IMG/VR virus record: IMGVR_UViG_3300031673_000156
Reading direction: 5' to 3' (one strand)
Source: a virus
DNA length: 41,666 nucleotides
A model generated the notes under the pieces. It searched no databases. It saw only the letters and a program-made list of their open reading frames with translations, and was not told the DNA's origin. This document shows, in pieces, positions 6,907-40,783 of this stretch. Position 1 is the stretch's first letter, and every line of letters starts with the position of its first letter. The position numbers were made by a program, and so were the translations under genes.

Positions 6907-7087
6907 CTTCCCAGGTAGATTTTATCCAAAACGTCGATTTAAAGTTAAGATAACTAAGGACGATTAAATAATCGTGATGTTTCTGTTATAGACTACTACA
7001 CCCTGGGAGATTTGATTTGTCTACACTGGTGGTTACGTTCAAAGCGGAAGCTGGCGGAATAACACTTTTCGAAGTACCGTTTAGTGT

Positions 7088-7426
7088 TCAATTACCTATC
7101 CAAATTCCGATACCGTTCCCGCCCCCGGACCCACTAGATTTTCTTTTAGGGCTACTCCTAGACGCTTTAGGGCTGCCGTTCCCTTTGGAGATTCCATCTT
7201 TGCCTTGCCCTTTTGAATTAGATCTATTATCTTTGTTACCACCGATACCGCCGATCATAATTCCCGGCTTGCCGCCTATACCGTTCCCTCCGCCTGACCC
7301 CTTAGATTTTCTAATAGGAGCGTTGTTAAATGCTTTGGGTTTGGCGTTTCCATTGGAGATTCCATCGCTGCCGTGCCCATTTGAATTGGATTTGTTATCG
7401 CTCTTACCGCCGATACCACCGATCAT
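7088..7426 (-). CDS. Low-complexity Gly/Lys/Ser/Asn-rich repeat protein. The frame is open up to 7588 and in frame with the stop of the upstream 535-aa gene.
   Basis: The minus frame MIGGIGGKSDNK...GGGNGIGGKPG has purine-rich first codon positions (RNN). It is collinear with the flanking minus-strand operon. There are no stops between the TAA at 7589-7591 and the TGA at 7088-7090. Confidence 0.35.
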   Translation of the reverse strand: MIGGIGGKSDNKSNSNGHGSDGISNGNAKPKAFNNAPIRKSKGSGGGNGIGGKPGIMIGGIGGNKDNRSNSKGQGKDGISKGNGSPKASRSSPKRKSSGSGGGNGIGIWIGN

Positions 7427-7560
7427 AATTCCCGGCTTGCCGCCTATACCGTTCCCTCCGCCTGACCCCTTAGATTTTCTAATAGGAGCGTTGCTCGACT
7501 TCCTAGGTATCCCTGATATCGAGATACCTTCTTTGCCGTGTCCGTTCCCGGCAGGGATAA
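7107..7560. repeat. Tandem direct repeat, unit 168 nt, about 2.7 copies
   Basis: The 11-mer ataccgttccc recurs at 7110, 7278 and 7446, and the surrounding sequence is near-identical between copies. The unit length is divisible by 3 and both strands are open across it. Confidence 0.85.
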
Positions 7561-7588
7561 CTTTGACAATAGACGTAAAGGTAATCCC

Positions 7589-9196
7589 TTAAACTAAATT
7601 ACCTTTCATCTTTATAAATGCGGATGAAAAAGCCGTAGCCGGGTTCGCATTTATAAGGGCTGCGGTGTTAGGCGGCAACGGCGGGCCGGACGGGCCTGTG
7701 GGTGTGGCGTGAATATGAAGGTCAAACAAAAGTGCCAAAGGCTCCGCTAGTGTAGCAGAAAAAGCAGCCAAGGCTCCTAGGGCTATAGAACCACACTGTA
7801 CGTCCAACTTAGGGCTGTTTAGTAAGATATTGAGGTTCGATTGAAGTTGTGCGGTGGTCTTACCGTCTAAGATCAAAGCTTGGAACGGTGACACCAGCCG
7901 AACGTCTTGACCCATAGAAACATAGGTGCCTAGGCCTGAAGTTAGGGAAGTCGTCAAAGTAGCTGCGTTCATGTAGAGATTTGAGCCGTCCCCAGCGTTC
8001 ATCTTTACCGAGCCAACTTTGTCGAAGGTCAACCGAGATCCTGAAGAATGTATTACATTTATCGTTTCGGTGTCGCTGGTGTCGTCCATAATAAACGAAT
8101 GCCCACCGCCGGTTGTAAGAGCAAACTTAGTCTCGCCTGCTACATCCGAAAATTGCATTGTTTGGCCGCCGCCACGAGACCGAAGCTCGAACAAACCGCC
8201 AATATTGAACCTTAAGGTCTCACCGATTTGATAGATCGCATTCTTTTGAATCTGGTAAGTTAAATCGCCACGGATCGTAGCCTTCTCGTCTAGGTCTACT
8301 ACACGATTGTAACCGCCGCTGGGTATTAAGAGGTCGTAACCGAAAGCTGCACCGGTGCCGAGACTGAGGGCGTAGTTACCCGCTTCATCAATTTCAACTG
8401 TAGTAGCGGTGTCGTCGTTAGCGAAATATTCTTCTACGTGTCTTAGAGCGTTGCCGGATCGGCTGTGGGCAAGAGCGAAACCTTTTTGATTGAGGACGTG
8501 CCCGGATTGCTTGCGGAACAAGATCGCAGGCTCTTCGTTGCCGGGGTTTCTAAGTTGTTGGTAGTGTTCGGCGGTGAAAGATCCTCGAACTTTCGGGTAT
8601 CTTTTTTCCCACGAAGAAAAAGTGCCGTCTTCATTCTCCTTGGGCCGGGACACAATCCCGAATCGATCTTCGTCACCCAAGGTGTTGGAACGGTATTGCA
8701 AGCCTTGGCGGTGGTGTATAGGAGCCCTATCACCAGCTACCATCTTATCCTGGTCCGCCCACCGCCGTATCATACCGCCGTAGGTCTCGATCGAAGGGCG
8801 ACGGCTCATGAATATTTGAGCATTACCGCTGGAAAGCATATCGATCTCACCCGGTAGCAAAGGCCGGTATAAGGACAAGCCGTTCTTGTAGCTAGCGATC
8901 TTGTTCCGAGCGCCTCGTTGAACGGTTGTCATAATCTGAGGCTTGGCTTCGTCCGACCTAAATTGTAAGACAAAGTTGGTCCCGCCTTCAGGCATCGCTC
9001 TGATCCAAGACTTTTGTGAGATAAAAGGGTGAGTCAAGGTCAAAGCTTGAGCGCTGTTACCGTAATGGCTGAAGAACCCAGACTCGGTGTCGGGGGACAC
9101 AGCGGTAAGAATCGCTCCAAAGGGAAACCGCAGCGATTTCCGCAGCGATTCTTCCCTTTCATCATCAATTGCTTGGTCTCTATCGTAATTGGGCAT
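7589..9196 (-). CDS. Hypothetical structural protein (535 aa)
   Basis: Long ORF whose start abuts the stop of the downstream 745-aa ORF (9196/9197). Gly/Thr/Ser-rich beta-like composition. No enzymatic motifs recognised. Confidence 0.7.
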   Translation of the reverse strand: MPNYDRDQAIDDEREESLRKSLRFPFGAILTAVSPDTESGFFSHYGNSAQALTLTHPFISQKSWIRAMPEGGTNFVLQFRSDEAKPQIMTTVQRGARNKIASYKNGLSLYRPLLPGEIDMLSSGNAQIFMSRRPSIETYGGMIRRWADQDKMVAGDRAPIHHRQGLQYRSNTLGDEDRFGIVSRPKENEDGTFSSWEKRYPKVRGSFTAEHYQQLRNPGNEEPAILFRKQSGHVLNQKGFALAHSRSGNALRHVEEYFANDDTATTVEIDEAGNYALSLGTGAAFGYDLLIPSGGYNRVVDLDEKATIRGDLTYQIQKNAIYQIGETLRFNIGGLFELRSRGGGQTMQFSDVAGETKFALTTGGGHSFIMDDTSDTETINVIHSSGSRLTFDKVGSVKMNAGDGSNLYMNAATLTTSLTSGLGTYVSMGQDVRLVSPFQALILDGKTTAQLQSNLNILLNSPKLDVQCGSIALGALAAFSATLAEPLALLFDLHIHATPTGPSGPPLPPNTAALINANPATAFSSAFIKMKGNLV

Positions 9197-22877: not shown

Positions 22878-22906
22878 TTGACAAAAACCCCGCACCGGTA
22901 TTACTT
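22878..22906 (+). promoter_or_regulatory. Sigma70-like promoter candidate (TTGACA-17-TTACTT)
   Basis: Perfect -35 TTGACA at 22878-22883, a 17-nt spacer, and a -10-like TTACTT at 22901-22906. It points toward the tRNA cluster. Confidence 0.4.
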
Positions 22907-23017
22907 TGAATACTCAACCAACGCCAAGGAGCGAACGTGCTACTTCACTACATTCAAATTAGCTTTATTAAGCCTAAGCGGATGTTCTGAAGCGTTTCCT
23001 GTCTTAAAGATATTAAA

Positions 23018-23047
23018 CGCCTAAGAACATCTTTCTTAGGCGTTTTT
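23018..23047 (+). terminator. Intrinsic terminator-like hairpin
   Basis: 9-bp stem cgcctaaga/tcttaggcg with loop acatctt, followed by TTTTT. Confidence 0.6.
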
Positions 23048-23055
23048 GTATTTAA

Positions 23056-23128
23056 GCCAGGGTAGCTCAGTAGGTAGAGCACTAGGTCGAAACCCTAGGT
23101 GTCAGCGGTTCAAATCCGCTCTTCGGCG
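23056..23128 (+). tRNA. tRNA-Phe (anticodon GAA), with an unusual C at position 33
   Basis: Manual cloverleaf: acceptor gccaggg/cttcggc (1 mismatch, 2 G-U), D arm gctc-agtaggta-gagc, anticodon arm ctagg-tcgaaac-cctag, variable gtgtc, T arm agcgg-ttcaaat-ccgct. Confidence 0.6.
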
Positions 23129-23141
23129 CTAAATTATTTAA

Positions 23142-23213
23142 TGGGTAGTAGCTCAGTGGTAGAGCGCAAGTCTGATAAACTTGAGGTCGGCTGTTCAACC
23201 CAGCCCTACCCAA
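23142..23213 (+). tRNA. tRNA-Ile (anticodon GAU)
   Basis: Perfect cloverleaf: acceptor tgggtag/ctaccca, D arm gctc-agtggta-gagc, anticodon arm caagt-ctgataa-acttg, variable aggtc, T arm ggctg-ttcaacc-cagcc. Confidence 0.8.
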
Positions 23214-23349
23214 CTATTTTTACTATGGAGGTCTTAAGAAAATGAATACTACGACAACGCTAAGGCAAACCGGTAAGTCCTTCAAGAAATCTACCAAAGA
23301 GATTCTTCTCAAACATAAATAGCCCTCTATACATAGTCTGATATCTTAT

Positions 23350-23438
23350 GGGCTAGTTGTCGCTAGTCCATCCTGCTGGAGATGTAGAGCATGGCACTTT
23401 TAATGCCAGGGTCGCAAGTTCGAATCTTGTCTAGCTCT
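23350..23438 (+). tRNA. tRNA-Lys (anticodon UUU)-like, atypical. The 3' two-thirds is canonical; a 16-nt insertion sits between the acceptor 5' strand and the D arm. It may be a pseudogene.
   Basis: D arm gctg-gagatgta-gagc, anticodon arm tggca-cttttaa-tgcca, variable gggtc, T arm gcaag-ttcgaat-cttgt, 3' acceptor ctagctc. The only complementary 5' strand (gggctag) lies 16 nt further upstream than expected. Confidence 0.4.
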
Positions 23439-23469: not shown

Positions 23470-23691
23470 ATGAAATATTATAAGCAATGTACTTTTAGGC
23501 AAGAAAAAACGGTCACCACGGCTTGGATAGAAGAGCGTGGGGCTAAGGTGGGTAAGAAGGTGAAGTTCAAAGATGCGGACAACGACGATTGGTGGGACGT
23601 GATTTCGGTGGGGGAAGACCGCCGCCCGGAAACCGCCGTCAAAATTTCAGAGAGATCTTACCTACACCAAAGGTCTATGTCGGACATCTAA
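23470..23691 (+). CDS. Hypothetical small protein (73 aa)
   Basis: ORF with SD GAAGGA 8 nt upstream. It ends exactly where inverted-repeat copy A begins. Confidence 0.5.
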   Translation: MKYYKQCTFRQEKTVTTAWIEERGAKVGKKVKFKDADNDDWWDVISVGEDRRPETAVKISERSYLHQRSMSDI

Positions 23692-23782
23692 CGCCTGGAA
23701 AAATCCCCTGGGGCAAAACAAAGAATTTTGCTTGTAACCTTCCGATATAATAAAGCTCTACTGATCTACGTTAGTCGGGTAT
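23691..23782 (+). repeat. Inverted-repeat copy A (about 90 bp), partner at 30461..30549
   Basis: cgcctggaaaaatcccctggggcaaaacaaagaattttgcttgtaacc...ataataaagctctactgatctacgttagtcg is about 85% identical to the reverse complement of 30461..30549. Confidence 0.8.
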
Positions 23783-23834
23783 TTTTGGGACTTCGCCAGG
23801 GTTACTTTTTTAGAAACGAACCTAGGGGGATGGG

Positions 23835-24410
23835 ATGAGTGCGTTGCATCGGGTCTTAGCGATCACAGAAGATGAAACAAAAAAGTTTATCTCCGACCAC
23901 GGTGGGCGGCCCACCCAAAAGGATTTGGACAAGTACGTTCAAGACAAGGGTATGGATAAGGATGAGATCTCAGAGATCATGTACGATCTCGTGAAGAATC
24001 AAATAGGTGGTTTGGAAGCGCCGAAACCGAAGCCTAAATCTAAGTTAGATACTGAAGCGATTAAAAAATTGGCGAAAGCTACGGGCCTCGAATACGAAAC
24101 GCACAACTATGAGGTTCGCTTCTTTCTCGAAAGCATGATCTACGTCGATGCTACTAAGATGACGGAAGACGAATACGACGAGATGGAAAAAGAGATCAAA
24201 AGTTTTTCCTTAAAAGGCGAAGGTTATGAAATTTTCGCTTGGAATGATGTTAGCGGGTACGATTATTGGTCTCAGCCGGATGAAGAGACAAATTATATTC
24301 AGATAGAAGTTAAAGTAGACAAAGATAAGATCGAATCGATAGACCCCAAGCAATTGAAGTTTGATGTAGAAGATGCTCAGAATACTTTTCACCAGTGGGA
24401 TAACGGATGA
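23835..24410 (+). CDS. Hypothetical protein
   Basis: 191-aa ORF with a strong SD (AGGGGGATGGG) directly upstream. Confidence 0.6.
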   Translation: MSALHRVLAITEDETKKFISDHGGRPTQKDLDKYVQDKGMDKDEISEIMYDLVKNQIGGLEAPKPKPKSKLDTEAIKKLAKATGLEYETHNYEVRFFLESMIYVDATKMTEDEYDEMEKEIKSFSLKGEGYEIFAWNDVSGYDYWSQPDEETNYIQIEVKVDKDKIESIDPKQLKFDVEDAQNTFHQWDNG

Positions 24411-24817
24411 CTAGACCTCTAATCTTAATCCAAGCTGAAACCAATCCTATAATCATGGACCAAGTGATAGAAGAGGTTGGTCCTAGGGTATTAGAGATCG
24501 TGGAAAGTTTTTCGGCTAAGGCTTTGAATCGGTATAACGTGCGCCCAGGGAGAATCTTCGGTAACCCTAGGGGCAAGGAACGGTTCAAGGTGGTTGATCT
24601 AGTCGGCTCGAAGATCGTGTGGAAGGACTTACAAACGAACCGCACGACTTACGATGATGTAGACGAGATCTTAGAAGCTTGGTCTTTGGCGGGGTATCAA
24701 GAAATTTCCCGGATCGATCAAATGCTAGAAAAGTTGAAGTCCTGGTTAACTCCATTTTTAGGAGCGGTTATTGTAGGCGCTCTGCTTTCATGGCTGGTTA
24801 ATAAGTTAGGACGGTAA
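24407..24817 (+). CDS. Hypothetical protein with C-terminal transmembrane anchor
   Basis: 136 aa. ATGA overlap with the upstream gene. C-terminal WLTPFLGAVIVGALLSWLVNKLGR is a hydrophobic helix. Confidence 0.6.
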   Translation: MTRPLILIQAETNPIIMDQVIEEVGPRVLEIVESFSAKALNRYNVRPGRIFGNPRGKERFKVVDLVGSKIVWKDLQTNRTTYDDVDEILEAWSLAGYQEISRIDQMLEKLKSWLTPFLGAVIVGALLSWLVNKLGR

Positions 24818-24955
24818 AAATGATCTTAGGTAATATTGAAGTCGAAGACGAAAAAGTTGTGTTACAAGTTGTATTCGAAGATGTCGATCAAGCTTTGGGT
24901 TATTGCATCGACCACGAAATTATGATCTCCCCTAAATTTATAGACGAGGGTTCTA

Positions 24956-25276
24956 GTGAGCGAGCATAAAGATTTTATCGTTGCTAAGACCTTGGAAGCT
25001 TTCGAGCGGTTCGATCCGGTGGTGGAAGAAACGTTACCCCAAGAGCCAGGGTCGCCTTCGGTGGCCCCGGACGGTGTGCCTGTCTTCGACTTAGAAACGA
25101 TGAGAAATCTGGAGCTTCACAAAGATAAAGTGATCCACGCCCCTGATTTTGAAGCGTTTATGGATCTCTTACAAAACGTAGCTACGGAAGAGAAACTAAA
25201 CCCGGCTCAAGACTTTGACAAGTTAGCCTCGGTGTTGAACCGGTTTAGAATAGACGAAGGGCTGGACCCACTTTAG
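24956..25276 (+). CDS. Hypothetical acidic protein
   Basis: 106-aa ORF with a GTG start and GAGGG 7 nt upstream. Confidence 0.5.
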   Translation: MSEHKDFIVAKTLEAFERFDPVVEETLPQEPGSPSVAPDGVPVFDLETMRNLELHKDKVIHAPDFEAFMDLLQNVATEEKLNPAQDFDKLASVLNRFRIDEGLDPL

Positions 25277-25536
25277 TATCTAGCTCGTGGTTGTCTTTCT
25301 TGCGCTTCGTTGACTTTGATGGTTCTGCCGTCGAATTCCTTGCCGTCTAATCCGTGCATGGCGTCGTCAGCGTCCTGGTCGCTAGAGTAGGTTACAAAAC
25401 CAAACCCCCTAGACCGATCTGTCTCACGATCGAAAATCACCTTTGCTTCGGTGACTGTACCGTATTGCTCAAATTTAGCTAACAATGAATCATTGTCAGT
25501 GCCCCACGAGAGACCACCCACGAATAACTTTTTCAT
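25273..25536 (-). CDS. RRM-domain RNA-binding protein (RNP-1/RNP-2 type, Rbp/CIRP-like)
   Basis: The start is chosen at MKKLFVGGL, with SD AAGAGGA 9 nt upstream. RNP-2 is LFVGGL and RNP-1 is RGFGFVTY, within a single about 80-aa RRM fold. Confidence 0.85.
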   Translation of the reverse strand: MKKLFVGGLSWGTDNDSLLAKFEQYGTVTEAKVIFDRETDRSRGFGFVTYSSDQDADDAMHGLDGKEFDGRTIKVNEAQERQPRARY

Positions 25537-25576
25537 CTCTATCATCCTCTTAACCTGAAATTGAAGTCTTCTTTTG

Positions 25577-25604
25577 ATCTTACAGAACAAGGCTAGACTG
25601 TCAA
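25577..25604 (-). promoter_or_regulatory. Sigma70-like promoter candidate for the RRM gene (TTGACA-16-TAAGAT on the minus strand)
   Basis: Minus strand reads tgtgtagTTGACAgtctagccttgttctgTAAGATcaaaag. The -35 is at 25599-25604 and the -10 at 25577-25582. Confidence 0.4.
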
Positions 25605-25657
25605 CTACACATTTTCATTACCTTTTCCTACTACAACAAACCAAGGTTAGTTTGTAT

Positions 25658-25673
25658 CTGAGTATATACTCAG
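25658..25673. promoter_or_regulatory. Perfect 16-bp palindrome ctgagtatatactcag (operator-like) about 20 nt upstream of gene 25693
   Basis: Self-complementary sequence in a divergent promoter region. It shares the TGAGT/ACTCA arms with the hairpins at 36771-36836. Confidence 0.5.
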
Positions 25674-25692
25674 GAAAGGGGGTGTTTAAAAA

Positions 25693-26043
25693 ATGGCAGG
25701 TATTAAAGAAACAAAAGAACTCTTAGAGTTCATCATCCGGTTAGGTGAAGCGGTAGACCGCAGCATGGAAGATGGGGAGATAGGTTTCATGGATATGAGC
25801 AATTTAGTTTCGGCTATGCTCGCAGCCAATGCAGCTTTCTCTGACATCGCTCTCATACCAGCGGAGATCAAAGATTTAACGAAAGAAGAATCTGAAGAGC
25901 TTTACGCTTACGTGCGAGACGAGCTTGATCTCGAAAGCGACAAGATTGAGATGATCGTCGAAAATGCCTTGGAAATAGGGATGAAAGTTTACCAACTTAT
26001 CCTAGCGATCCGAGGCGAAGCGCCAGCCGCACCAGCCGCATAG
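25693..26043 (+). CDS. Hypothetical protein
   Basis: 116-aa ORF with SD AGGGGG upstream, followed by a terminator. Confidence 0.55.
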   Translation: MAGIKETKELLEFIIRLGEAVDRSMEDGEIGFMDMSNLVSAMLAANAAFSDIALIPAEIKDLTKEESEELYAYVRDELDLESDKIEMIVENALEIGMKVYQLILAIRGEAPAAPAA

Positions 26044-26045
26044 GG

Positions 26046-26068
26046 TAGCCCCTTCGGGGGCTATTTTT
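26046..26068. terminator. Bidirectional intrinsic terminator
   Basis: tagcccc-ttcg-ggggcta hairpin followed by TTTTT. Lies between convergent genes (ends at 26043 and 26071). Confidence 0.65.
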
Positions 26069-26070
26069 CC

Positions 26071-26949
26071 TTAGAAAATCTTCTGCAAATCCACTTCACA
26101 ATCTTCATCCCACAAAGGGCCTTCTTCGACTTCGGGCTGGTTCAACACGCTCGTCTCTAAATCTAAAGCGTAATTTAACCGCACCAACTTATCGTTCAAA
26201 AGAATCGCTTCTTTGGCGTCCTTGAGCTTTTGGCGGCACTTAGGTGAAAGCTTGGCTTCAGCTACTTTGTCATAAAAGTCTTCTAAGGAGCCGTCAGAAG
26301 AAGCCATAATGCTGATAAGCTCGTTCTTGGTCCTTAGCACCACGTTGGGTACCGAGTCACCTGAATCGCCCCACAGCGACTTCCACAGCCTTATTTGAGC
26401 AAACTCTGTAAGGTGCTCATGTATAACTTTGTGCTTGTCTTTTCGGCAAAAACTAGCTCGAACGTGGTGTTTGCCTATGAACTCTTTTTTCAGCGGATCG
26501 TAAACACCGGCGTTGGGGTGGTCGGATATTTGCCAGATATCTTTGTCTGTGGTGATGACCGTGACTTCATCGTTAAAGTGCTGGGCGACAAAGGAAGCGA
26601 TAGAGTCGTCGGCTTCGTACCCTCCGGCTATGATCGTGGTCGCCTCACCTAGATTTTGTTTAATAGCTTCGGTGGCGTCGAACCGGGTGCCATCTTGGTG
26701 CGTCAACTTTTGCCTGCCTGCCTTATAACCAGGAAGCAATCGATATTTTTCTTCAGGCCTACTATCTAAGGCGTAGATAAATTTAGCCAACCCGTTCCAA
26801 CGCCGGTAGCTGGCTATACACTTCTTAAAATAGTCTACGTGTTCGGTGTAATATTTGGGGACTTGATCTGGTTTGCCACGGTAAGCAGCGAAGAAAGCGA
26901 TGTAAACTAAATTTGAGAAATCGACCACAACATAACTTTGTCTAAACAT
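26071..26949 (-). CDS. 5'-3' exonuclease / flap endonuclease (phage RNase H / FEN family)
   Basis: N-terminal VVVDFSNLVYIAFF (PIN-like), the conserved GYEADD box (IAGGYEADDSIASF), and a helix-hairpin-helix-like C-terminal part. The 292-aa length is typical. Confidence 0.8.
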   Translation of the reverse strand: MFRQSYVVVDFSNLVYIAFFAAYRGKPDQVPKYYTEHVDYFKKCIASYRRWNGLAKFIYALDSRPEEKYRLLPGYKAGRQKLTHQDGTRFDATEAIKQNLGEATTIIAGGYEADDSIASFVAQHFNDEVTVITTDKDIWQISDHPNAGVYDPLKKEFIGKHHVRASFCRKDKHKVIHEHLTEFAQIRLWKSLWGDSGDSVPNVVLRTKNELISIMASSDGSLEDFYDKVAEAKLSPKCRQKLKDAKEAILLNDKLVRLNYALDLETSVLNQPEVEEGPLWDEDCEVDLQKIF

Positions 26950-26994
26950 AAGGAACCTCCATTGCCGGGAGTATACTACACCAGGGTTAGGAGT

Positions 26995-27378
26995 TCAATC
27001 GTCGGTAGGGTCACTGGAGTACCCAGCTTCAAAGAGATTAATCAAAGTCCACTCAGAGATAGGCCGCCAGCCGCCTCTAAGGTCTACAGAGAATTTAGTT
27101 TCAGACATATCTTTGGTACCTAGGCATGTACTACATACCCGATTACCATTGTTGAGGCTTTTAAATTCTCGGCTGCACCGTAAACAAGACCTTTGTTTAG
27201 CGTCGGCTTCTTCATCGATGTCGTAGCCTTCAACATCTTCTAGGGAAAGATAAGGGCCTAGGCCGTTCCAATCCGAAACGTCTTGGTTCCGAGGTCGGGG
27301 TGGTCGCCCCCGGCCCCTTTTAGCTTCTTCCTCTTGTTCTTTGATTGTAGATTCAAGGTATCTTCGGACTTTCCCCAA
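26995..27378 (-). CDS. Hypothetical DNA-binding protein with AT-hook-like RGRGRPPRPR and Cys4 zinc ribbon
   Basis: 127 aa with CLRC...CSTC spacing typical of a zinc ribbon and a basic GRP-containing segment. Confidence 0.55.
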   Translation of the reverse strand: MGKVRRYLESTIKEQEEEAKRGRGRPPRPRNQDVSDWNGLGPYLSLEDVEGYDIDEEADAKQRSCLRCSREFKSLNNGNRVCSTCLGTKDMSETKFSVDLRGGWRPISEWTLINLFEAGYSSDPTDD

Positions 27379-27392
27379 GAGTTACCCCCATT

Positions 27393-28325
27393 TTAAGTTT
27401 TCGTATTCAGCTTAGCCATAAATTCCGCTCCTTGGATGCCGCCGTAGCCGTAATAGAGATCTTTACCCGATCGTCCGAGGTCTATAGCGGTTTCTTGCAA
27501 CGTGTTCTGTAATAGATCACGCATAGCCGCACGTCCGATGGAGGGGTTCTTTTTCAAGAGTAGAGAAGCCCCGAGCGCTAACAAACCAGCTACGGTCGGT
27601 GAAGCCATCGACGTACCCTGCAATTTTCTGTAGGTTTTGCTTAGATAAGTAGAATAGCAAGAAACACCTGGGGCTGCCACCGCTACGTGATCGCCGTAAT
27701 TTGAAAACCACGCTCGATTTTCGTTCTTGTCGATAGCCGCTACGGCTAAAACCCCGTCGTAAGCTGCCGGGTAAGAATCACTTTGGGTGTTTTCGTTGCC
27801 CGCCGCCGCTACGAGTAACACCCCACGGGCGTGAAGTTCCTTACAAATTTGAGCTTGCTCGGGAGAATAGTGAGTCGAACCCAAAGACATATTGACGATG
27901 TGCGGATCGGGTTGGGCGGCTACCCACCTCAAAGCGGCAGTGGTGTAATGGGTATAACCAGAACCGTTGTCGTCTAAGGTTCGAAGCGAAGTGATTCTTG
28001 AACTAGGAGCCAAGCCGACCCCAGCGGCTCCAATCTTACCGCAACACCAAGTTCCGTGGCCGTTGCCGTCGTTAGGGTTGTTGTTGCCCTGGATAAATGA
28101 ATACGCCTTCACAGGGGAGTGAGCAAAAGCGAAGTGGTCGGGGGTACACCCAGAGTCTATTACATAAACATTTACCTTTTCACCTTTGACCCCGTACTTA
28201 GCCCACAAAGAAGGGATCTTGAGTTGATCGAAATCCCAAAGGGTCTCGCCTACCGACAAGCCTTCCACGGTAGGCCCGTCCCAGATGGGGTTGATGCTAA
28301 TTTTATCCTTAGCTTCCTCTGTCAT
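27393..28325 (-). CDS. Subtilisin-like serine protease (peptidase S8)
   Basis: The catalytic triad context is complete: Asp in VYVIDSG, His in GNGHGTWCCG, Ser in GTSMASP. Asn oxyanion-hole region AAAGNE. Confidence 0.85.
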   Translation of the reverse strand: MTEEAKDKISINPIWDGPTVEGLSVGETLWDFDQLKIPSLWAKYGVKGEKVNVYVIDSGCTPDHFAFAHSPVKAYSFIQGNNNPNDGNGHGTWCCGKIGAAGVGLAPSSRITSLRTLDDNGSGYTHYTTAALRWVAAQPDPHIVNMSLGSTHYSPEQAQICKELHARGVLLVAAAGNENTQSDSYPAAYDGVLAVAAIDKNENRAWFSNYGDHVAVAAPGVSCYSTYLSKTYRKLQGTSMASPTVAGLLALGASLLLKKNPSIGRAAMRDLLQNTLQETAIDLGRSGKDLYYGYGGIQGAEFMAKLNTKT

Positions 28326-28333
28326 AACATCCC

Positions 28334-28696
28334 CTATATTTTGATGTAGTAGGTTTTAGTTACTAATATCTTTCCTTCGATATCCGAAAAAGTCGCTACC
28401 AACGACACTCTTTGGTCGGGGTACTTAGGCAAATAAATCAAGTCTGAGACTTCGTAAAACCCTAGGTACTTACCTTTGTAGACTATTTCTAAGGTAGCAG
28501 CGTTGGCGGGTAAGTAGTTCGGATTGAATTTTATCCGTAGGGTGCCGTTGGCCGCCAGAGAAAATTGCTGTTCTTCTTCAAATTCACCTGGGGCTGGGTG
28601 CGGTGCTGTGGTGTCGAGCGGTGGGGCAGGTTTAGGTGTAGCGACACAAGCCGTCAAAGCTAGGCCGCATAGGAATAATTTTAGTTTGGTGAGCAT
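28334..28696 (-). CDS. Lipoprotein (signal peptidase II substrate)
   Basis: The start is chosen at MLTKLKLFLCGLALTAC because AGGGG lies 10 nt upstream. Lipobox L-T-A-C after a hydrophobic core. The rest is a Pro-rich linker plus a beta-rich domain. Confidence 0.7.
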   Translation of the reverse strand: MLTKLKLFLCGLALTACVATPKPAPPLDTTAPHPAPGEFEEEQQFSLAANGTLRIKFNPNYLPANAATLEIVYKGKYLGFYEVSDLIYLPKYPDQRVSLVATFSDIEGKILVTKTYYIKI

Positions 28697-28742
28697 TAGA
28701 TTTACCCCTATCGTAAACATTTATCTATAAACAATATAACAG

Positions 28743-28769
28743 AAAAAGGAGCTTGCCGAAGCAAGCCCC
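28743..28769 (-). terminator. Intrinsic terminator downstream of gene 28799..29524
   Basis: Minus strand reads gcttgc-ttcg-gcaagc hairpin followed by tcctttttctg. Confidence 0.5.
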
Positions 28770-28798
28770 TTTCGAGGAAATCTAAATTACGTTACGAA

Positions 28799-29524
28799 TT
28801 AGGCAGTGAATCTGATTCGTAGTCCAAGGTACGGATTGTCCGAAGTAGGTACGCTAACGACGATAGCGTCTAAAGCAACCGCTGTGCCTTGAGTGATTTG
28901 ACCTGCGTCACCTAGGGTGATAGCAGTACCGGCTGACCAATCCAAAGATGTGTCAAACTGGTCTGTCCATAGTTCTCCGAGACCGTTTCCAAGCTCGATG
29001 AACCCATGCTCACTGTGAAGTCCACGGTTGTTGATGAATCTCTCACCGAACCGTTGCTTGGATTGAACCAAGGTCAAGTCATAGAGGTAAGTGATCGTAA
29101 CGGTGGCACCAGCTTCGTCGGCGTGGAACTTTAATCGGCCAGTTTGAAGGTCAACTTTTACAGAATCATTTGCCGTTGCGCCTGCAAACGTCTCGTCGAT
29201 TGTGAGCACCAATCCGCCAGCCGTTACGGCCCGGATTCTTAGAGTAACTAGGTTCTGGTTTCGAAGATCAACTTCCAAAGCCGCTGGAGCGGAAGGAACA
29301 GTAAGAACTTCTACTTCTGAAGTACGATCGGGCTGTGAGTCAGCGGTTTGCGAATACCCGATTGGAATCTCAGTACCACCGATGGTAGCAACGAGTTCCG
29401 CTTTTTCAACACCGTCTTCGATAATGCCGCACATGATCAAGCCTTCTTGGGCTACGACTGTACCGGATGCCAAAGCTCGGTTGATGCGTTGCGAAGAAAA
29501 TGTTCGCTTTAGGTCAATAGACAT
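28799..29524 (-). CDS. Hypothetical protein (241 aa), beta-rich
   Basis: ORF with SD AGGAG upstream (ccAGGAGttactaATG). Its own terminator follows. Confidence 0.6.
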   Translation of the reverse strand: MSIDLKRTFSSQRINRALASGTVVAQEGLIMCGIIEDGVEKAELVATIGGTEIPIGYSQTADSQPDRTSEVEVLTVPSAPAALEVDLRNQNLVTLRIRAVTAGGLVLTIDETFAGATANDSVKVDLQTGRLKFHADEAGATVTITYLYDLTLVQSKQRFGERFINNRGLHSEHGFIELGNGLGELWTDQFDTSLDWSAGTAITLGDAGQITQGTAVALDAIVVSVPTSDNPYLGLRIRFTA

Positions 29525-29685
29525 TAGTAACTCCTGGAATAAACTTTTTCAATTTGGATATGAGCTAGCGTGCTGAAAACGAACATTTTCTACCCACTGT
29601 CATTTTTCTAAGTTAAGGGTGTGGTAAAGATTTTTAGTAGATTGTACTGTACCCTTGTCGTAAAAATTTAAAAAAGGGTGGGGCT

Positions 29686-30465
29686 ATGAATCAGCTAAGC
29701 GGCGAGTGTTTGCTCATCGGGGATGTTGCGGGTCAATACGAAGCTTTGATGAGCCTCTTAAAGTCCTGTCCTGACGTTCTCCCGGTGAGTGTTGGTGACA
29801 TGATCGACCGAGGGCATGACTCCAAAAAGGTAGTCGACTTTTTCAGAGACCACGGCAAAAGGTTGAAAGGCAACCACGAGCATATGTGCGTGGACTTCAT
29901 CCAAGATAGAAAATATTACGGCAGTGGTATCTGGTTTCGTAACGGGGGCGAAGCGACGGTAGAATCCTACTTAGGTGAATCAATCCGAGATTTAGAGACT
30001 GAATTTTGGAATGAATACGAAGACGGCTCTGCACAGGATTTCAACAACGAGATCAGAGAAAAGCTAAAAGCTACCGGGTTGGACAAAGAGCTAGATGATT
30101 TGCCCTTGTACTTTGAACTCGACGGTGGTGGTATCGTCACCCACGCCCCGATCCGAGCCGGGTTGACGTTGGATACCGTTTGCGAATTAGGGGTGCGAGG
30201 TTTCACCAGCTTCAGTAAAGCAGAAGCCAAAGCCGACCAGTCAGTGATCTGGAACCGCTACCCGCCCTGCAAAATGGAAGGCAAGTACCAAATCTTTGGC
30301 CATAACTCGATGTGGGGTCATTGCTTTATGAAGCACGACGAGGACTCGAATTTATCAAGGGACAATTTTAAAGAACCTTGGGGTGTTTGCTTGGATGATT
30401 CCCGAGCAATGAGATTAACCGCTATGCACTGGCCGTCCAAAAAGATCTATCAAGAAGTATTTTGA
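29686..30465 (+). CDS. Lambda-type PPP-family Ser/Thr protein phosphatase (calcineurin-like metallophosphoesterase); motif I reads GDVAG instead of GDxHG
   Basis: GDVAGQY, VGDMIDRG (GDxxDRG), GNHE, and lambda-PPase-like QSVIWNR and IFGHNS motifs. Confidence 0.85.
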   Translation: MNQLSGECLLIGDVAGQYEALMSLLKSCPDVLPVSVGDMIDRGHDSKKVVDFFRDHGKRLKGNHEHMCVDFIQDRKYYGSGIWFRNGGEATVESYLGESIRDLETEFWNEYEDGSAQDFNNEIREKLKATGLDKELDDLPLYFELDGGGIVTHAPIRAGLTLDTVCELGVRGFTSFSKAEAKADQSVIWNRYPPCKMEGKYQIFGHNSMWGHCFMKHDEDSNLSRDNFKEPWGVCLDDSRAMRLTAMHWPSKKIYQEVF

Positions 30466-30549
30466 GGCGACTAAGGTAGATCAGTAGAGCTTTATTATTT
30501 CATAAGGTTACAAGCAAAATTCTTGTTTTGCCCCAGGGGATTTTTTCAG
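30461..30549 (-). repeat. Inverted-repeat copy B (about 90 bp), partner at 23691..23782
   Basis: Its reverse complement, cgcctgaaaaaatcccctggggcaaaacaagaattttgcttgtaacc...ataataaagctctactgatctaccttagtcg, matches copy A. Confidence 0.8.
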
Positions 30550-30557
30550 GCGTGGGC

Positions 30558-31091
30558 TCAAAAAGACTTCCGCTTTTTAAGCTGTTTGATGATGATAGAT
30601 TCTTCACCTAGATCGATTTGGGCTGTGGGGAATCTTTTGGCGAGATCCGCTAACACACACCCCCGGACGTAAGCTTCTTGGGAAAGCTTAAGCTCTTTGC
30701 TTCGAGCTTCGATCAAGGTCTTGTGTTGGCGGCGGATAGTAGAAGCCACGTTGACTAGCTCGTTAGGTTCGTGGCCGCCTCTATCCTTCTGGGTAATCAT
30801 AGCGTTCCGAACCTGCACCGCTAGATCCAAACACCTTTGCTTGGCACCTTCGTTCTCTTTGAAGATGATCGACAAGGAGTCGATGACCTTGGCTTGGCCG
30901 TGGTGCTTAACCATCAACTTGTAAGCGACGTTGTGCAAAGCGTCGTGGCACCCCGGACAAAGGTCTATCAAATTATCGATAGTGTCTTTACCGCCTAGAG
31001 CCCTGGGGGTTTTGTGGTGTGAGTGCTTGTGGATAACCGGGTAAGCCTCTTCACAACACCCACACCTGAAGATTTTGTTGAAGTCGTTCAC
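30558..31091 (-). CDS. HNH endonuclease
   Basis: CGCCEEAYPVIHKHSHHKTPRALGGKDTIDNLIDLCPGCHDALH carries the C-X2-C...HH...N...H...C-X2-C HNH signature. The start is proposed at a GTG overlapping the TGA of the upstream methyltransferase gene (GTGA). Confidence 0.7.
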   Translation of the reverse strand: MNDFNKIFRCGCCEEAYPVIHKHSHHKTPRALGGKDTIDNLIDLCPGCHDALHNVAYKLMVKHHGQAKVIDSLSIIFKENEGAKQRCLDLAVQVRNAMITQKDRGGHEPNELVNVASTIRRQHKTLIEARSKELKLSQEAYVRGCVLADLAKRFPTAQIDLGEESIIIKQLKKRKSF

Positions 31092-33742: not shown

Positions 33743-33929
33743 GGAAACTCCCTCTTGGAACAATAGATTTTCTGGAAACTCTAAGACATAATACGAATGT
33801 AAAATACCGATGTCCAGACAATCCATTATTAAAAAGCCAGATAATCTAATAAGTTGTGTAGTAGAGTTTTTCTAAAGGTGTGATTTTAAAATAGTAAAAC
33901 TATGATTTTGCGAAAGCGTAAAACCTAAT

Positions 33930-38212: not shown

Positions 38213-40783
38213 ATGAGCATTCGATTTTCCGGCATTTTGACGATCGATACCGTAACGGTAGTAACATCGCCTTATGTAGTAGAAGCTACATTTTCCGATT
38301 CGAGGGGCTATTTCGATGAAACTTTGATTGCTGTCGATAACGTGATTATCGACGCAAACAAAAATCGTTATGTAGTCACCGACGTTACTAGCGTTACACC
38401 TTTGATCCTAGAATTAGAGTGGGACGACCTCGATGCGCCCGCCCAACCCACCACGGGCGATGGTATTATCGGTGTGGTTTCTTCCGCTAGGGAGCTTTTA
38501 GAAGTTACCCCGGACGCACCAACCGGTGTGGCAACCGCAGCCCGTAACATCGATTTCTTCAAAAACTTAGATACCACACCAGATCTAGTTACCGGACCCG
38601 CTGGAGTCGCCGGAGCTACCGGCTTTGGCTTCGGCCAACAAGGTCTCACCGGCCCTTCCGGCGCTACAGGTATCGCAGGTATCATAGGACCACAAGGTGG
38701 CACAGGGCTAGCGGGTGTGGCTGGTGTGGCGGGAGCCGTCGGGACCAAAGGCGCTACCGGTCTCGGTGGGACCAAAGGCGCTACCGGTACTAAAGGCAGC
38801 AACGGCACCCCAGGTGTTGACGGTGTAACAGGCCTTACCGGAGCCGTAGGAGCAATCGGAAGCACTGGTATGGTAGGTTCCCAAGGATCTCAAGGTCTCA
38901 CTGGAATTGACGGGACCAAAGGTGACACCGGAGCGGGCGGTTTGGTTGGCGACACCGGAGCGGGCGGCCAACAAGGCCTAACCGGATTATCAGGTTCCAC
39001 TGGTCTTCAAGGCGTCCAAGGCAACATAGGATCGCAAGGTACGACCGGAACAAGCGGTGCTACAGGATTACTAGGTGGCACAGGTTTAATAGGTCAAACA
39101 GGGGTTTCGATAACCGGCCCACGAGGACACACCGGACCTTTCGGTCCTACAGGTTTAGCGGGAAGCACCGGAAGCCAAGGTGATACGGGTTCTCTGGGAC
39201 TAAAAGGCGATACAGGCGTAGCGGGGACCAACGGCACCACCGGAGCGGGCGGCCAACAAGGGCAAACGGGAGCGTTAGGTCAAACCGGAGCCGATGGGGG
39301 TGTAGGCCAACAAGGTATCACAGGATTCGGCGGTACTACAGGCTTACTAGGAAGCACCGGAGCAACAGGAATCCAAGGGTCCGTAGGCCAACAAGGTCTC
39401 ACAGGCCCCGCAGGTGTAGGCGTAACAGGATCACAAGGTCAAACAGGTGCCGTAGTTCAAGGTGATACTGGAGTTTCGATAACCGGTCAGACCGGTTTGG
39501 CAGGACCGACGGGTAGTCAAGGATCGACAGGCCCGTTAGGTCTTGTTGGAGCCACCGGAGCAAGCGGCACCAAAGGCGATACAGGTACGATCGGCGTACA
39601 AGGAAATACAGGCCTTAGTTTGCAGGGAAGCACAGGCCTTCAAGGTTCACAAGGTACAACCGGATTCAATGGTAACGCTGGCTCTACAGGCGTAGCTGGC
39701 TTGCAAGGTGATACGGGTACAATAGGTGGTCAAGGCTCTGCCGGTGCTACAGGCGTTAACGGTCTTCAAGGGATAACTGGCGGTGTTGGTATTCCCGGTG
39801 AAACCGGAACACAAGGTGTAGTAGGAAATGCGGGAGCAACGGGTGTTGTCGGTACTCAGGGTATAACAGGATTAAATGGTACTACAGGTATAGTAGGTAG
39901 TACAGGTGCTACTGGAATTAGCGGAGCCACCGGAGCCTTTGGAGTAATCGGAGCTACCGGAAGTCAGGGCACCACGGGCGTAGCTGGAATCCAAGGAGCC
40001 CAAGGTTCCACCGGAGCCCAAGGCCAACAAGGAAATACCGGCCCAATAGGCACCACAGGTTCTATGGGTTCGCAAGGACAGCAAGGTCTGACCGGTGGAC
40101 TCGGGCTCCAAGGTTTGACGGGATTATTAGGCGGCACTGGCGTACAAGGTGGCGTAGGAGTTGATGGTACCACCGGGGTGAAAGGGCCTACAGGAGTACA
40201 GGGAGCGACGGGTCAACGAGGCTTCACAGGCATAGGCATTATAGGACCGCCAGGACCGATAGGCTCCACCGGATTCACTGGAACTACAGGTGTTCCCGGC
40301 GAAACTGGTGCTGGTTTACAAGGCCAAACCGGAGCGGGGGCCACAGGTCCAGAGGGTCACACAGGTGTCCAAGGAATTGCGGGAGCCACCGGCCCACAAG
40401 GTATAGCCAGAACCGCTTACAACTGGACGATCTCCAATAGTTCAGGTTTAATCGTTGGTACTTATATCGTTTACTTTGCGATGGAAGCGGTGACGATCGA
40501 CGAGGTCGTGGTGACGATGATTAATTCAGGTACAGGCGGCACCGGCGCAACCCACTTTGAATTCTATAAATTGGGAGCTTCCATTTTACCGACTTCACCA
40601 CCGGTCGGTACCGGCGACTTCACGGTCATCATCCCGGCAGCGGGCGTGACGGTTATGAACGGCACCAAAGTAACCACCTTAGCTTTAGGTTTGGCCCTAA
40701 ACGAATCTTTGGTAGTAGGGATCTCAGCGGCCCCGGACACCCCAGGTAATAACGCTTTGATTTCGATTCGAGCTTTGTTGTAG
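38213..40783 (+). CDS. Collagen-like (Gly-X-Thr rich) triple-helix repeat fibre protein with non-collagenous N- and C-terminal domains
   Basis: About 590 aa of uninterrupted G-X-Y triplets (GPAGVAGATGFGFGQQGLTGPSGATG...). They are flanked by a 130-aa N-terminal domain and a 120-aa C-terminal beta-rich domain (TAYNWTISNSSGLIVGTYIVYFAM...), as in phage and Bacillus BclA-type collagen-like fibres. Confidence 0.9.
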   Translation: MSIRFSGILTIDTVTVVTSPYVVEATFSDSRGYFDETLIAVDNVIIDANKNRYVVTDVTSVTPLILELEWDDLDAPAQPTTGDGIIGVVSSARELLEVTPDAPTGVATAARNIDFFKNLDTTPDLVTGPAGVAGATGFGFGQQGLTGPSGATGIAGIIGPQGGTGLAGVAGVAGAVGTKGATGLGGTKGATGTKGSNGTPGVDGVTGLTGAVGAIGSTGMVGSQGSQGLTGIDGTKGDTGAGGLVGDTGAGGQQGLTGLSGSTGLQGVQGNIGSQGTTGTSGATGLLGGTGLIGQTGVSITGPRGHTGPFGPTGLAGSTGSQGDTGSLGLKGDTGVAGTNGTTGAGGQQGQTGALGQTGADGGVGQQGITGFGGTTGLLGSTGATGIQGSVGQQGLTGPAGVGVTGSQGQTGAVVQGDTGVSITGQTGLAGPTGSQGSTGPLGLVGATGASGTKGDTGTIGVQGNTGLSLQGSTGLQGSQGTTGFNGNAGSTGVAGLQGDTGTIGGQGSAGATGVNGLQGITGGVGIPGETGTQGVVGNAGATGVVGTQGITGLNGTTGIVGSTGATGISGATGAFGVIGATGSQGTTGVAGIQGAQGSTGAQGQQGNTGPIGTTGSMGSQGQQGLTGGLGLQGLTGLLGGTGVQGGVGVDGTTGVKGPTGVQGATGQRGFTGIGIIGPPGPIGSTGFTGTTGVPGETGAGLQGQTGAGATGPEGHTGVQGIAGATGPQGIARTAYNWTISNSSGLIVGTYIVYFAMEAVTIDEVVVTMINSGTGGTGATHFEFYKLGASILPTSPPVGTGDFTVIIPAAGVTVMNGTKVTTLALGLALNESLVVGISAAPDTPGNNALISIRALL

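Follow-up and report, generated by a model that had tools for sequence, protein, structure and literature searches.

Inverted repeats around a 6.7-kb gene block of an uncultured large phage, best read as copies of a small promoter-like intergenic element

Invertible DNA segments bounded by inverted repeats are exemplified by the G segment of Mu, the C segment of P1 and the Hin/Gin/Cin/Pin systems. Putative mobile promoters are reportedly promoter sequences that are shared upstream of unrelated genes. PeSLs, the promoter-early stem-loop cassettes of T4-type phages, occur in dozens per T4-type genome (Arbiol et al. 2010, PMC2839356; Comeau et al. 2014, PMC4122927). Here, a locus with features of all three was analyzed in IMG/VR record IMGVR_UViG_3300031673_000156, the window being the whole stretch of 41,666 nucleotides.

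An earlier note had described inverted repeats of about 90 nt and 85% identity around a 6.7-kb block. Alignment gave an 87-nt match between two inverted copies, A and B, with one 1-nt indel between them and an identity of 93% or 92% (80/87), so that the similarity is not much shorter than proposed and the identity is slightly higher. A repeat search returned two arm pairs, 23698-23777 with 30468-30547 (80 nt, 85% ungapped) and 23691-23728 with 30516-30553 (38 nt, 89%). The amended coordinates are as follows.

23691..23777, + strand: copy A, intergenic element between a 73-aa gene and a 191-aa gene; a second phage (L050/L051, here phage 2) has a homologous intergenic region at the same locus
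30468..30553, - strand: copy B, intergenic element between the convergent stops of an HNH gene (4 nt upstream) and a phosphatase gene (2 nt downstream)

Copy A overlaps the gene at 23470-23691 by a single base, the final one of its stop codon, and the three short strings quoted earlier were found in both copies alike. A 23-nt core occurred exactly twice in the window and in none of 100 shuffles; CCCCTGGGG was confined to copies A and B. Both arms are best interpreted as copies of a small intergenic element with promoter-like features, around which genes are gained and lost in a clade of uncultured large phages. The surrounding features are given below.

23015..23430, + strand: rest of the variable island around copy A, with terminator, tRNA-Phe, tRNA-Ile and tRNA-like fragment
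23015-23045, + strand: strong hairpin terminator
23375-23430, + strand: tRNA-like fragment
23470..23691, + strand: 73-aa gene (phrog_25356), directly upstream of copy A; an unrelated 82-aa gene takes its place in phage 2
23835..24410, + strand: 191-aa gene, directly downstream of copy A; missing from phage 2, L047 and L049
24407..30465, no single strand: conserved collinear block encoding proteins of 136, 49 and 106 aa, RRM protein, 116-aa protein, FEN, 127-aa protein, S8 protease, 128-aa lipoprotein-like protein, 241-aa virion-like protein and phosphatase
25273-25536, - strand: RRM protein
30558..31091, - strand: HNH endonuclease gene, a resident that precedes copy B; its position is kept in relatives with and without the element

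The enclosed gene content had been named correctly (RRM protein, FEN, S8 protease, lipoprotein, phosphatase): the 5'-3' exonuclease (FEN), the S8 protease and a NinI-like metallophosphatase were identified, and the lipoprotein-like protein has a plausible lipobox (LALTAC). The description of these genes as accessory rather than core was half right, as most of them are conserved across relatives at 55-87% identity. A tRNA cluster lies outside copy A (tRNA-Phe and tRNA-Ile at 23056-23214), the 73-aa gene intervening. Copy A sits inside a variable island (tRNAs, 73-aa gene and 191-aa gene, the latter encoding 191, 195 or 199 aa depending on the strain) that is bounded by two conserved genes, and therefore does not mark the edge of an evolutionary unit. 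In the relatives L047 and L049, nothing of the tRNA island separates the homologue of the 189-aa gene from that of the 136-aa gene.

The suggestion that the block is an invertible or mobile segment found no support. When relatives were inspected for the presence, absence or inversion of the cassette, the block was present and not inverted in L047, L049 and L051: L047 and L049 (55-67% protein identity) have kept the enclosed gene order and orientation and lack the repeats, and L051, from the repeat-bearing phage 2, has the same block orientation as the window after approximately 30% protein divergence. Contigs spanning A came from 11 samples and contigs spanning B from 10, and all of them show a single arrangement; these counts bear on the majority form, which is the only form that assemblies display. 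Pfam and PHROG scans identified no invertase, integrase or resolvase in any gene from 16.8 to 36.6 kb, and no transposase was found. Judged from these comparisons, the 6.7-kb block is a fixed, conserved part of the genome rather than a mobile or flipping one, and the inverted geometry around it is best explained as a by-product of where the copies were placed. The locus thus resembles Mu G, P1 C and the Hin-type segments in having a stretch of several kb between short inverted repeats; unlike in these, there is no invertase gene, no evidence for a second orientation and no split tail-fibre gene inside, and the repeats are members of a dispersed family in which direct repeats occur as well. A composite transposon or MITE was rejected in view of the missing transposase, the synteny of the block in relatives without repeats and the lack of terminal inverted repeats on single copies.

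Homologous recombination between the inverted copies might nevertheless flip the block at some frequency and yield two genome isomers, since inverted repeats of 87 nt and 92% identity are sufficient for phage recombination systems, and the likeness of the inverted copies within each of two phages points to sequence exchange between them. In view of the uniform arrangement across samples (again for the majority form), the unchanged orientation in phage 2 and the absence of an invertase or integrase from the genes scanned, we regard such flip-flop inversion as highly improbable. An apparent hint of it came from Logan k=31 contigs, which break inside both repeats in five samples, though A and B share no 30-mer. 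The breaks were considered as a recombinant junction of B-upstream with A-downstream sequence, and were then fully explained by a third copy, C (L045/L046), found in another contig by a metagenome scan. Each break point is predicted by the sequence of copy C (TTGG, an ATGAA patch and, past the core, a G), and in SRR29492071-73, which are devoid of copy C, both repeats were crossed without a break. The practical lesson is that contig breaks inside a repeat can mimic recombinant junctions when they are caused by a further copy in a co-occurring genome.

Eight members make up the element family, spread over three genomic contexts: the window phage has A and B, phage 2 has A', B', B'' and E, and L045 has C and D. 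Phage 2, whose proteins are 45-87% identical to those of the window phage across shared genes, has copies homologous to A and B at the same two positions and in the same inverted geometry. The place corresponding to copy B is occupied by B' and B'', direct copies (83% identity over 84 nt) that flank a 179-aa gene; the window phage lacks this gene and has just one copy, B, at that spot, and L055 and L047 have no element there. In L045, the direct copies D and C flank Tpt1 plus a 114-aa ORF. Copy C is 96% identical to copy B over 55 nt, although the two contigs share almost nothing else. As with putative mobile promoters, a near-identical promoter-like sequence thus lies beside unrelated genes, even in another contig; differently from these, copies often stand upstream of no gene, and no association with a transposase was found. 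Identities were 92% (window) and 76-81% within genomes versus 63-73% between genomes, and this greater likeness within genomes suggests gene conversion, or concerted evolution, of the copies. Of the eight copies, five (B, B', B'', C and E) are directed into the 3' end of a gene that converges on them; A, A' and D precede genes of their own orientation, with A following the strong terminator and the tRNA genes. Two copies were counted in 56.5 kb of the window phage and four in approximately 27 kb of phage 2, stretches of genomes that appear to span approximately 150-170 kb in this phage family.

Inspection of single copies revealed neither terminal inverted repeats nor a flanking duplication. 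GenBank phages returned no megablast match to 22.8-31.3 kb, IMG/VR yielded no hit to the exact core or to any of three sub-patterns, the core was not found in GTDB genomes, and protein-seeded locus searches in IMG/VR returned nothing. The idea that the element is tied to the HNH gene, to a homing endonuclease or to IscB was rejected, as the HNH gene is a conserved resident with or without the element. Its likeness to the IscB of L045 is limited to a 42-aa HNH motif, and copies C and B are oppositely oriented relative to the HNH-containing gene. The element was also considered as an end of the IscB/HEARO (IS200/IS605-type) element that lies near copy C, and shows no identity with the end hairpins of the latter (CCCCCTCCTTCAGGTGGGGG among others). 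Repeat and IscB element of L045 align to the window phage as two separate pieces, approximately 100 nt apart, and no HEARO was found near copies A and B of the window.

The part of the earlier note that gained support was the proposal that the repeats are a duplicated promoter/terminator module or a hotspot of recombination that would explain mosaicism, as gene gain, loss and replacement adjoin the copies. Next to copy A, the 73-aa gene is swapped for the 82-aa gene of phage 2, and the 191-aa gene is present in the window phage only; two gene sets, the 179-aa gene (B'/B'') and Tpt1 with the 114-aa ORF (D/C), lie between direct copies. Both element-bearing intervals were among the 6 variable ones of 22 compared, giving a hypergeometric estimate of p ~0.065 from few events. 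In L055, the stops of the HNH and phosphatase genes overlap with no element between them. Because the element is absent there as well as from L047 and L049, copy B looks like an insertion that is not needed for the expression of its neighbors.

Intact copies, with an element size of approximately 60-87 nt, share the order A-run with short palindrome, AT-rich stretch, -10-like hexamer, 4 nt, invariant CTCTACT and short leader (5' to 3'). The corresponding positions in the window are listed below.

23699..23713, + strand (copy A) and 30531-30545, - strand (copy B): A-run, then the 9-bp palindrome CCCCTGGGG
23746..23751, + strand: -10-like hexamer TATAAT of copy A, read from the sequence
30494..30502, - strand: extended -10-like motif TGaAATAAT of copy B (pattern TGn[AT][AT]TAAT)
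23756..23762, + strand (copy A) and 30483-30489, - strand (copy B): invariant CTCTACT; copy A has it where transcription would be expected to begin

The palindrome is found in every copy with varying sequence (CCTATAGG, CCTAGG, CCCTATGGG and CTATAG). In copies A and B it is predicted to form a hairpin of 3 base pairs and -2.5 kcal/mol, which does not outdo shuffled sequences; across copies, the 6-9-bp palindromes gave 0 to -3.5 kcal/mol, likewise not above shuffles and short of a stable terminating stem-loop. Given a hairpin of merely -2.5 kcal/mol, the palindrome is more likely a protein site on duplex DNA than a terminator. This bears on the idea that the element, read in reverse, is a terminator or insulator whose GC palindrome and T5-6 run stop transcription leaving the block at both borders, phosphatase mRNA included. 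Five of the six main copies, all except C, indeed end in the palindrome followed by T5-6 when reversed, and the five copies facing a converging gene directly follow the stop of that gene on its strand. However, the hairpins are of 3 base pairs (-2.5 to -3.5 kcal/mol) or missing, the terminator scan skipped the copies yet found strong terminators nearby, copy C is without a T-run, and the L055 genes manage with overlapping stops and no spacer. We consider this function very unlikely, and the more specific proposal of CCCCAGGGG plus T6 as phosphatase terminator was likewise not supported by the folding result.

The hexamer TATAAT of copy A aligns with AATAAT, TTTAAT, AATGAT and GATAAT elsewhere in the family; all seven intact copies have A at -11 and T at -7, and the distance from the hexamer to CTCTACT is 4 nt throughout. 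TGaAATAAT is also present in copies C and B'', and A' has TGaTTTAAT; the upstream TG occurs in four of the six main copies, whereas copy A lacks the T of TG but has the perfect TATAAT. These -10 features, the fixed 4-nt spacing and the placement of A, A' and D argue for a promoter. Against it stand the absence of a -35 hexamer at 16-18 nt (TTGCTT lies just 12 nt from the -10 hexamer), the consensus promoter scan, which called neither copy A nor copy B, the five of eight copies that face a converging gene and have no gene to serve, and the invariance of CTCTACT at the presumed start, which is atypical of sigma-70 promoters. By eye, patterns of sigma-54, sigma-28, sigma-32, ECF and T4 MotA-box promoters gave no convincing fit; TTTGCTT resembles a MotA box but is approximately 2 nt too close to the -10 hexamer and is missing in phage 2.

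The unusual invariance of CTCTACT(G/A)A at and past the presumed start could instead reflect a gene for a small RNA or some other cis-acting site, for instance a promoter for a phage polymerase or a binding site centered on CTCTACT, rather than a host sigma-70-type promoter. A small downstream hairpin (CUGA-N6-UUAG), which in copy A is followed by a U5 run, would fit this reading; however, it is weak and has no U-run after it in B or C, folds on either strand were no better than shuffles (z -1.5 to +1.5), Rfam gave no match at the repeats, and the 56 kb examined yielded no phage RNA polymerase. This alternative is very unlikely. The copies may also be scars only, that is, leftovers of cassette exchange that were spread by recombination and have no regulatory role. 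The five copies facing converging genes, the degraded -10 and CTCTACT regions of B' and E, and the dispensability of the element at the B position in L055 and L047 are in line with this. It is, however, at odds with the retention of the -10-like hexamer, its spacing and CTCTACT (identical in seven of the eight members) in copies of just 63-73% overall identity, with a palindromic character that survives sequence change, and with the location of A, A' and D where a promoter is expected, and we judge it unlikely.

The explanation that we favor, and consider somewhat probable, is a repeated, promoter-like regulatory cassette that also acts as a homology patch for gene gain and loss, similar to PeSLs. 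The element would be a promoter, probably regulated via its palindrome, and copy A would restart transcription of the 191/136-aa operon past the tRNA island. As the same ~80 nt recur at several intergenic sites, the homologous recombination system of the phage itself could use them as patches. We infer that recombination between copies would homogenize them within a genome by gene conversion, and that genes between or beside copies would be inserted, deleted or swapped. Copy B may be the sole remnant after loss of a gene once held between two copies, as the 179-aa gene is in phage 2, or a landing site for a gene of that kind; if active, it would transcribe the 3' end of the phosphatase gene in antisense. 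Like PeSLs, the element is a small composite intergenic repeat with a C/G-run palindrome ('GGGG...CCCC' in PeSLs), an AT-rich stretch and a putative promoter. It lies in variable regions beside genes of unknown function, bounds insertions, deletions and replacements between close relatives, encloses genes between direct copies, and the mechanism proposed for both is homologous recombination between copies. Unlike PeSLs, it has no -35 consensus, its palindrome is too short for a stem-loop terminator, 2-4 copies were seen per 20-56 kb instead of dozens, and several copies are mutually inverted and face converging genes. The phage also differs from PeSL hosts in not being recognizably T4-like, as the proteins compared with annotated phages match large non-T4 phages, at ~30% identity at most.

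Two phages approximately 30% apart in protein sequence have the inverted pair at the same positions, and the pair evolves in concert; this could also be taken to mean that selection keeps it at both block borders. The copies might then be two inward-facing, co-regulated promoters with a shared palindromic operator, and might drive convergent and antisense transcription across the block (e.g., switching the phosphatase off) or allow flip-flop at low frequency. This seems improbable; if true, the selected inverted pair would be a regulatory architecture undescribed for PeSL-type elements.

No new mechanism is demonstrated by these findings. Under the favored explanation of a promoter-like cassette doubling as homology patch, concrete test loci are provided by the 179-aa gene with its flanking direct copies, by the Tpt1 cassette and by the tRNA island, and the concept derived from PeSLs, that small repeated regulatory cassettes serve as homology patches for the exchange of accessory genes, would extend beyond T4-type phages to uncharacterized large environmental phages.

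The repeat pair reported in the earlier note is real: repeat search and alignment of the arms around the 6.7-kb gene block, copies A and B, gave 92-93% identity across 87 nt with a single 1-nt indel. The gene content listed there for the enclosed block (RRM protein, FEN, S8 protease, lipoprotein and phosphatase) was likewise borne out. A 23-nt core, ATAATAAAGCTCTACTGATCTAC, occurred at just two places in the window and was absent from shuffled sequences. The copies and the genes abutting them are as follows.

23470-23691: 73-aa gene; the last base of its stop codon is the first base of copy A
23691-23777, + strand: copy A
29686-30465, + strand: phosphatase gene, converging on copy B; stop 2 nt past the copy B end
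30468-30553, - strand: copy B
30558-31091, - strand: HNH endonuclease gene; stop 4 nt before the start of copy B

The block itself does not appear to be mobile or invertible, a possibility raised in the earlier note, since relatives lacking the repeats keep its gene order, only one orientation was found, and neither a recombinase nor a transposase is encoded within or near it. In two sets of related contigs, L047/L048 and L049 (712-aa protein 57% and 55% identical, respectively), no trace of the repeats was found, and genes, order and orientation were those of the window phage: 305 aa, 189 aa, 136 aa, 49 aa, 106 aa, RRM, 116 aa, FEN, 127 aa, S8 protease, 128 aa, 241 aa, phosphatase and HNH. 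The homologue of the 189-aa gene directly adjoins that of the 136-aa gene in these relatives; thus, copy A falls within a variable island (terminator, two tRNAs, tRNA-like fragment, 73-aa gene, copy A, 191-aa gene) rather than bordering a unit. A rival reading is a rare flip-flop inversion of the block, for which the inverted placement of the arms could speak; contigs from 11 samples cross copy A and contigs from 10 samples cross copy B, all with a single arrangement. The tRNA-like fragment (23375-23430, + strand), located between tRNA-Ile and the 73-aa gene, scored 30 bits with the Rfam tRNA model, covering model positions 10-63 only, and was not called by ARAGORN; it may be a decayed third tRNA. 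Further upstream (22881-23045, + strand) lies a good sigma-70-like promoter (TTGACA-N16-TATTAC), and about 110 nt beyond it a 13-bp hairpin terminator (23015-23045), the strongest in the region and immediately before the tRNAs; the two may define a short transcript or leader.

Logan contigs (k=31) broke within both repeats in five samples: the internal contig spanned 23747/8 to 30505, that of the left flank ended at 23776 and those on the HNH side ended at 30484. Fixed break zones (23747-23776 and 30476-30505) were seen in Logan contigs L006, L007, L013, L021, L022, L024 and L029-L031. Because A and B have no 30-mer in common, recombinant A/B junctions were first suspected. This explanation was rejected when a metagenome scan identified copy C, with the mosaic sequence GGAATTTTGGTTGTAACCTTATGAAATAATAAAGCTCTACTGATCTACGTTAGTCG, which predicts every break point: this third copy, probably in another, co-occurring genome, has 30-mers in common with each arm, so that k=31 breaks mimic recombinant junctions. 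In SRR29492071-73, samples without copy C, both repeats were crossed unbroken. The breaks thus do not argue for inversion.

The repeat is a dispersed family of elements. The contig bearing copy C (L045/L046) has only the element and an IscB/HEARO element in common with the window phage at the DNA and protein level. A closer relative found in the same samples, phage 2 (L050-L054; shared-gene proteins 45-87% identical), carries homologous copies at both window positions with the inverted geometry kept, and a third one. A profile built from the six main copies (A, B, C, A', B', B'') retrieved two further diverged members, D and E.

Copies of the element outside the window
L045/L046 (Ga0307378_10006187), 7455-7538: copy C
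L045, 6331-6411: copy D, upstream of a Tpt1 RNA 2'-phosphotransferase gene
L051, 17862-17945, - strand: copy A', upstream of a 137-aa gene
L051, 10539-10622, + strand: copy B', directly after the HNH stop
L051, 11197-11281, + strand: copy B'', abutting the phosphatase stop
L050, 6395-6475: copy E, decayed

B' and B'', in direct orientation and 83% identical over 84 nt, enclose a 179-aa gene; the window phage lacks this gene and has the single copy B there. Similarly, direct copies D and C enclose Tpt1 and a 114-aa ORF. No element was found in a third lineage (L055, HNH 75% identical), in which the HNH and phosphatase stops overlap, and in L047 a 95-aa ORF takes its place between the two genes.

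The HEARO RNA of the window phage (Rfam RF02033, the guide-RNA scaffold of IscB nucleases) lies outside the window, some 3.6-3.8 kb to its left (L039 18219-18459), without an IscB ORF. Its 87-93% identical counterpart (L045 7643-9380) has an intact 433-aa IscB (RRXRR + HNH) and is inserted within a small GGQ-motif (release-factor-like) gene converging on copy C; between the two elements, the hairpins at the ends differ by a compensatory change (TCGATGC/GCATCGA versus TCGATTC/GAATCGA).

No sequence similar to the window phage was found among GenBank phages and in IMG/VR, and matches to annotated phages did not exceed 30% identity among the proteins compared. Many metagenome assemblies carry it nearly base for base (JGI Ga03073xx; ENA ERZ272568xx; Logan SRR85545xx and SRR294920xx), on contigs of up to at least 69-87 kb. 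Relatives found via the 712-aa protein sit on contigs as long as 150-170 kb, indicating a lineage of large phages. Across 56.5 kb of the window phage (window and two loci joined), A and B were the only copies. Right of the window (L033 14029-16528), adjacent NAD-salvage genes encode an NMN adenylyltransferase-NUDIX fusion and a nicotinamide/nicotinate phosphoribosyltransferase. An 884-aa protein (window 1-1125, + strand, extending left; L039 13528-16182) has major-vault-protein shoulder (PF11978) and repeat (PF17795, weak) domains, which are unusual in phage. An 856-aa protein (38213-40783, + strand; 67% identical in phage 2) consists largely of collagen-like G-X-Y triplet repeats and is probably a fibre. 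A 191-aa ORF (7017-7592) contains about 2 1/4 tandem copies of a 168-nt unit (7107-7486; 79-82% identical).

Over the roughly 20 kb shared with phage 2, gene content differed in 6 of the 22 intervals separating conserved genes, both element-bearing intervals among them (hypergeometric estimate, p ~0.065, suggestive only). Upstream of copy A, the 73-aa gene stands opposite an unrelated 82-aa gene in phage 2, and the 191-aa gene downstream is present in the window phage only. Copies within a genome were 92% (window phage) or 76-81% (phage 2) identical, those at corresponding positions of different genomes only 63-73%. This higher within-genome likeness points to sequence exchange between copies, including inverted ones. 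One rival takes the copies as pure recombination scars; they also have the following ordered layout.

Read 5' to 3' from the aligned copies, an A-run precedes a short palindrome whose sequence varies while its palindromic character is kept (CCCCTGGGG, CCTATAGG, CCTAGG, CCCTATGGG, CTATAG), followed by an AT-rich stretch and a -10-like hexamer (TATAAT in A; AATAAT in B, C and B''; TTTAAT in A'; GATAAT in D; AATGAT in B'). All seven intact copies have A at -11 and T at -7, and CTCTACT stands unchanged exactly 4 nt after the hexamer. Of the six main copies, four have TG at -15/-14; copy A, the sole one with a perfect hexamer, has CG instead. A -35 box at 16-18 nt is absent, and a consensus promoter scan called neither window copy. 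The palindromes fold with 0 to -3.5 kcal/mol only and are probably sites for a protein acting on duplex DNA. A further rival sees the element as a small RNA or another type of cis site; whole copies folded no better than shuffles and had no Rfam match.

A, A' and D lie ahead of co-oriented genes. Restart of transcription would be expected at copy A, since a strong terminator and tRNA genes precede it. Each of B, B', B'', C and E faces the 3' end of a gene running towards it, an orientation compatible with the rival of a reverse-strand terminator or insulator. A second upstream motif, CACACC(C)TT..TAGAAAAA, is found ahead of both the 241-aa virion-like gene and the 136-aa gene (29590-29630 and ~33840-33870, both - strand), is conserved in phage 2 (L051 12525-12575) and, at 33866, is followed by CTCTACT; it may represent another promoter class of these phages.

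Our preferred reading, held with moderate confidence, takes the element as a regulatory cassette of promoter-like character, repeated at intergenic sites and doubling as a recombination homology patch; we infer both the promoter activity and the recombination mechanism. The promoter-early stem-loop cassettes (PeSLs) of T4-type phages comprise a G/C-run palindrome, an AT-rich stretch and a promoter, flank genes with two copies, and have been described as repeated promoter cassettes serving recombination and gene turnover (PMC2839356, PMC4122927). The element shares the G/C-run palindrome, AT-rich stretch, promoter-like part and genes between two copies. Unlike PeSLs, it lacks a -35 box and a stable stem-loop, is low in copy number, and often runs counter to the neighbouring genes; it would therefore be a variant of the PeSL type rather than a clean member. 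As a candidate promoter cassette present at several intergenic sites, it would offer homology patches to the phage recombination machinery, and recombination at the copies would homogenise them while adjacent genes are gained, lost or swapped, which would account for the homogenisation and gene turnover in these phages.
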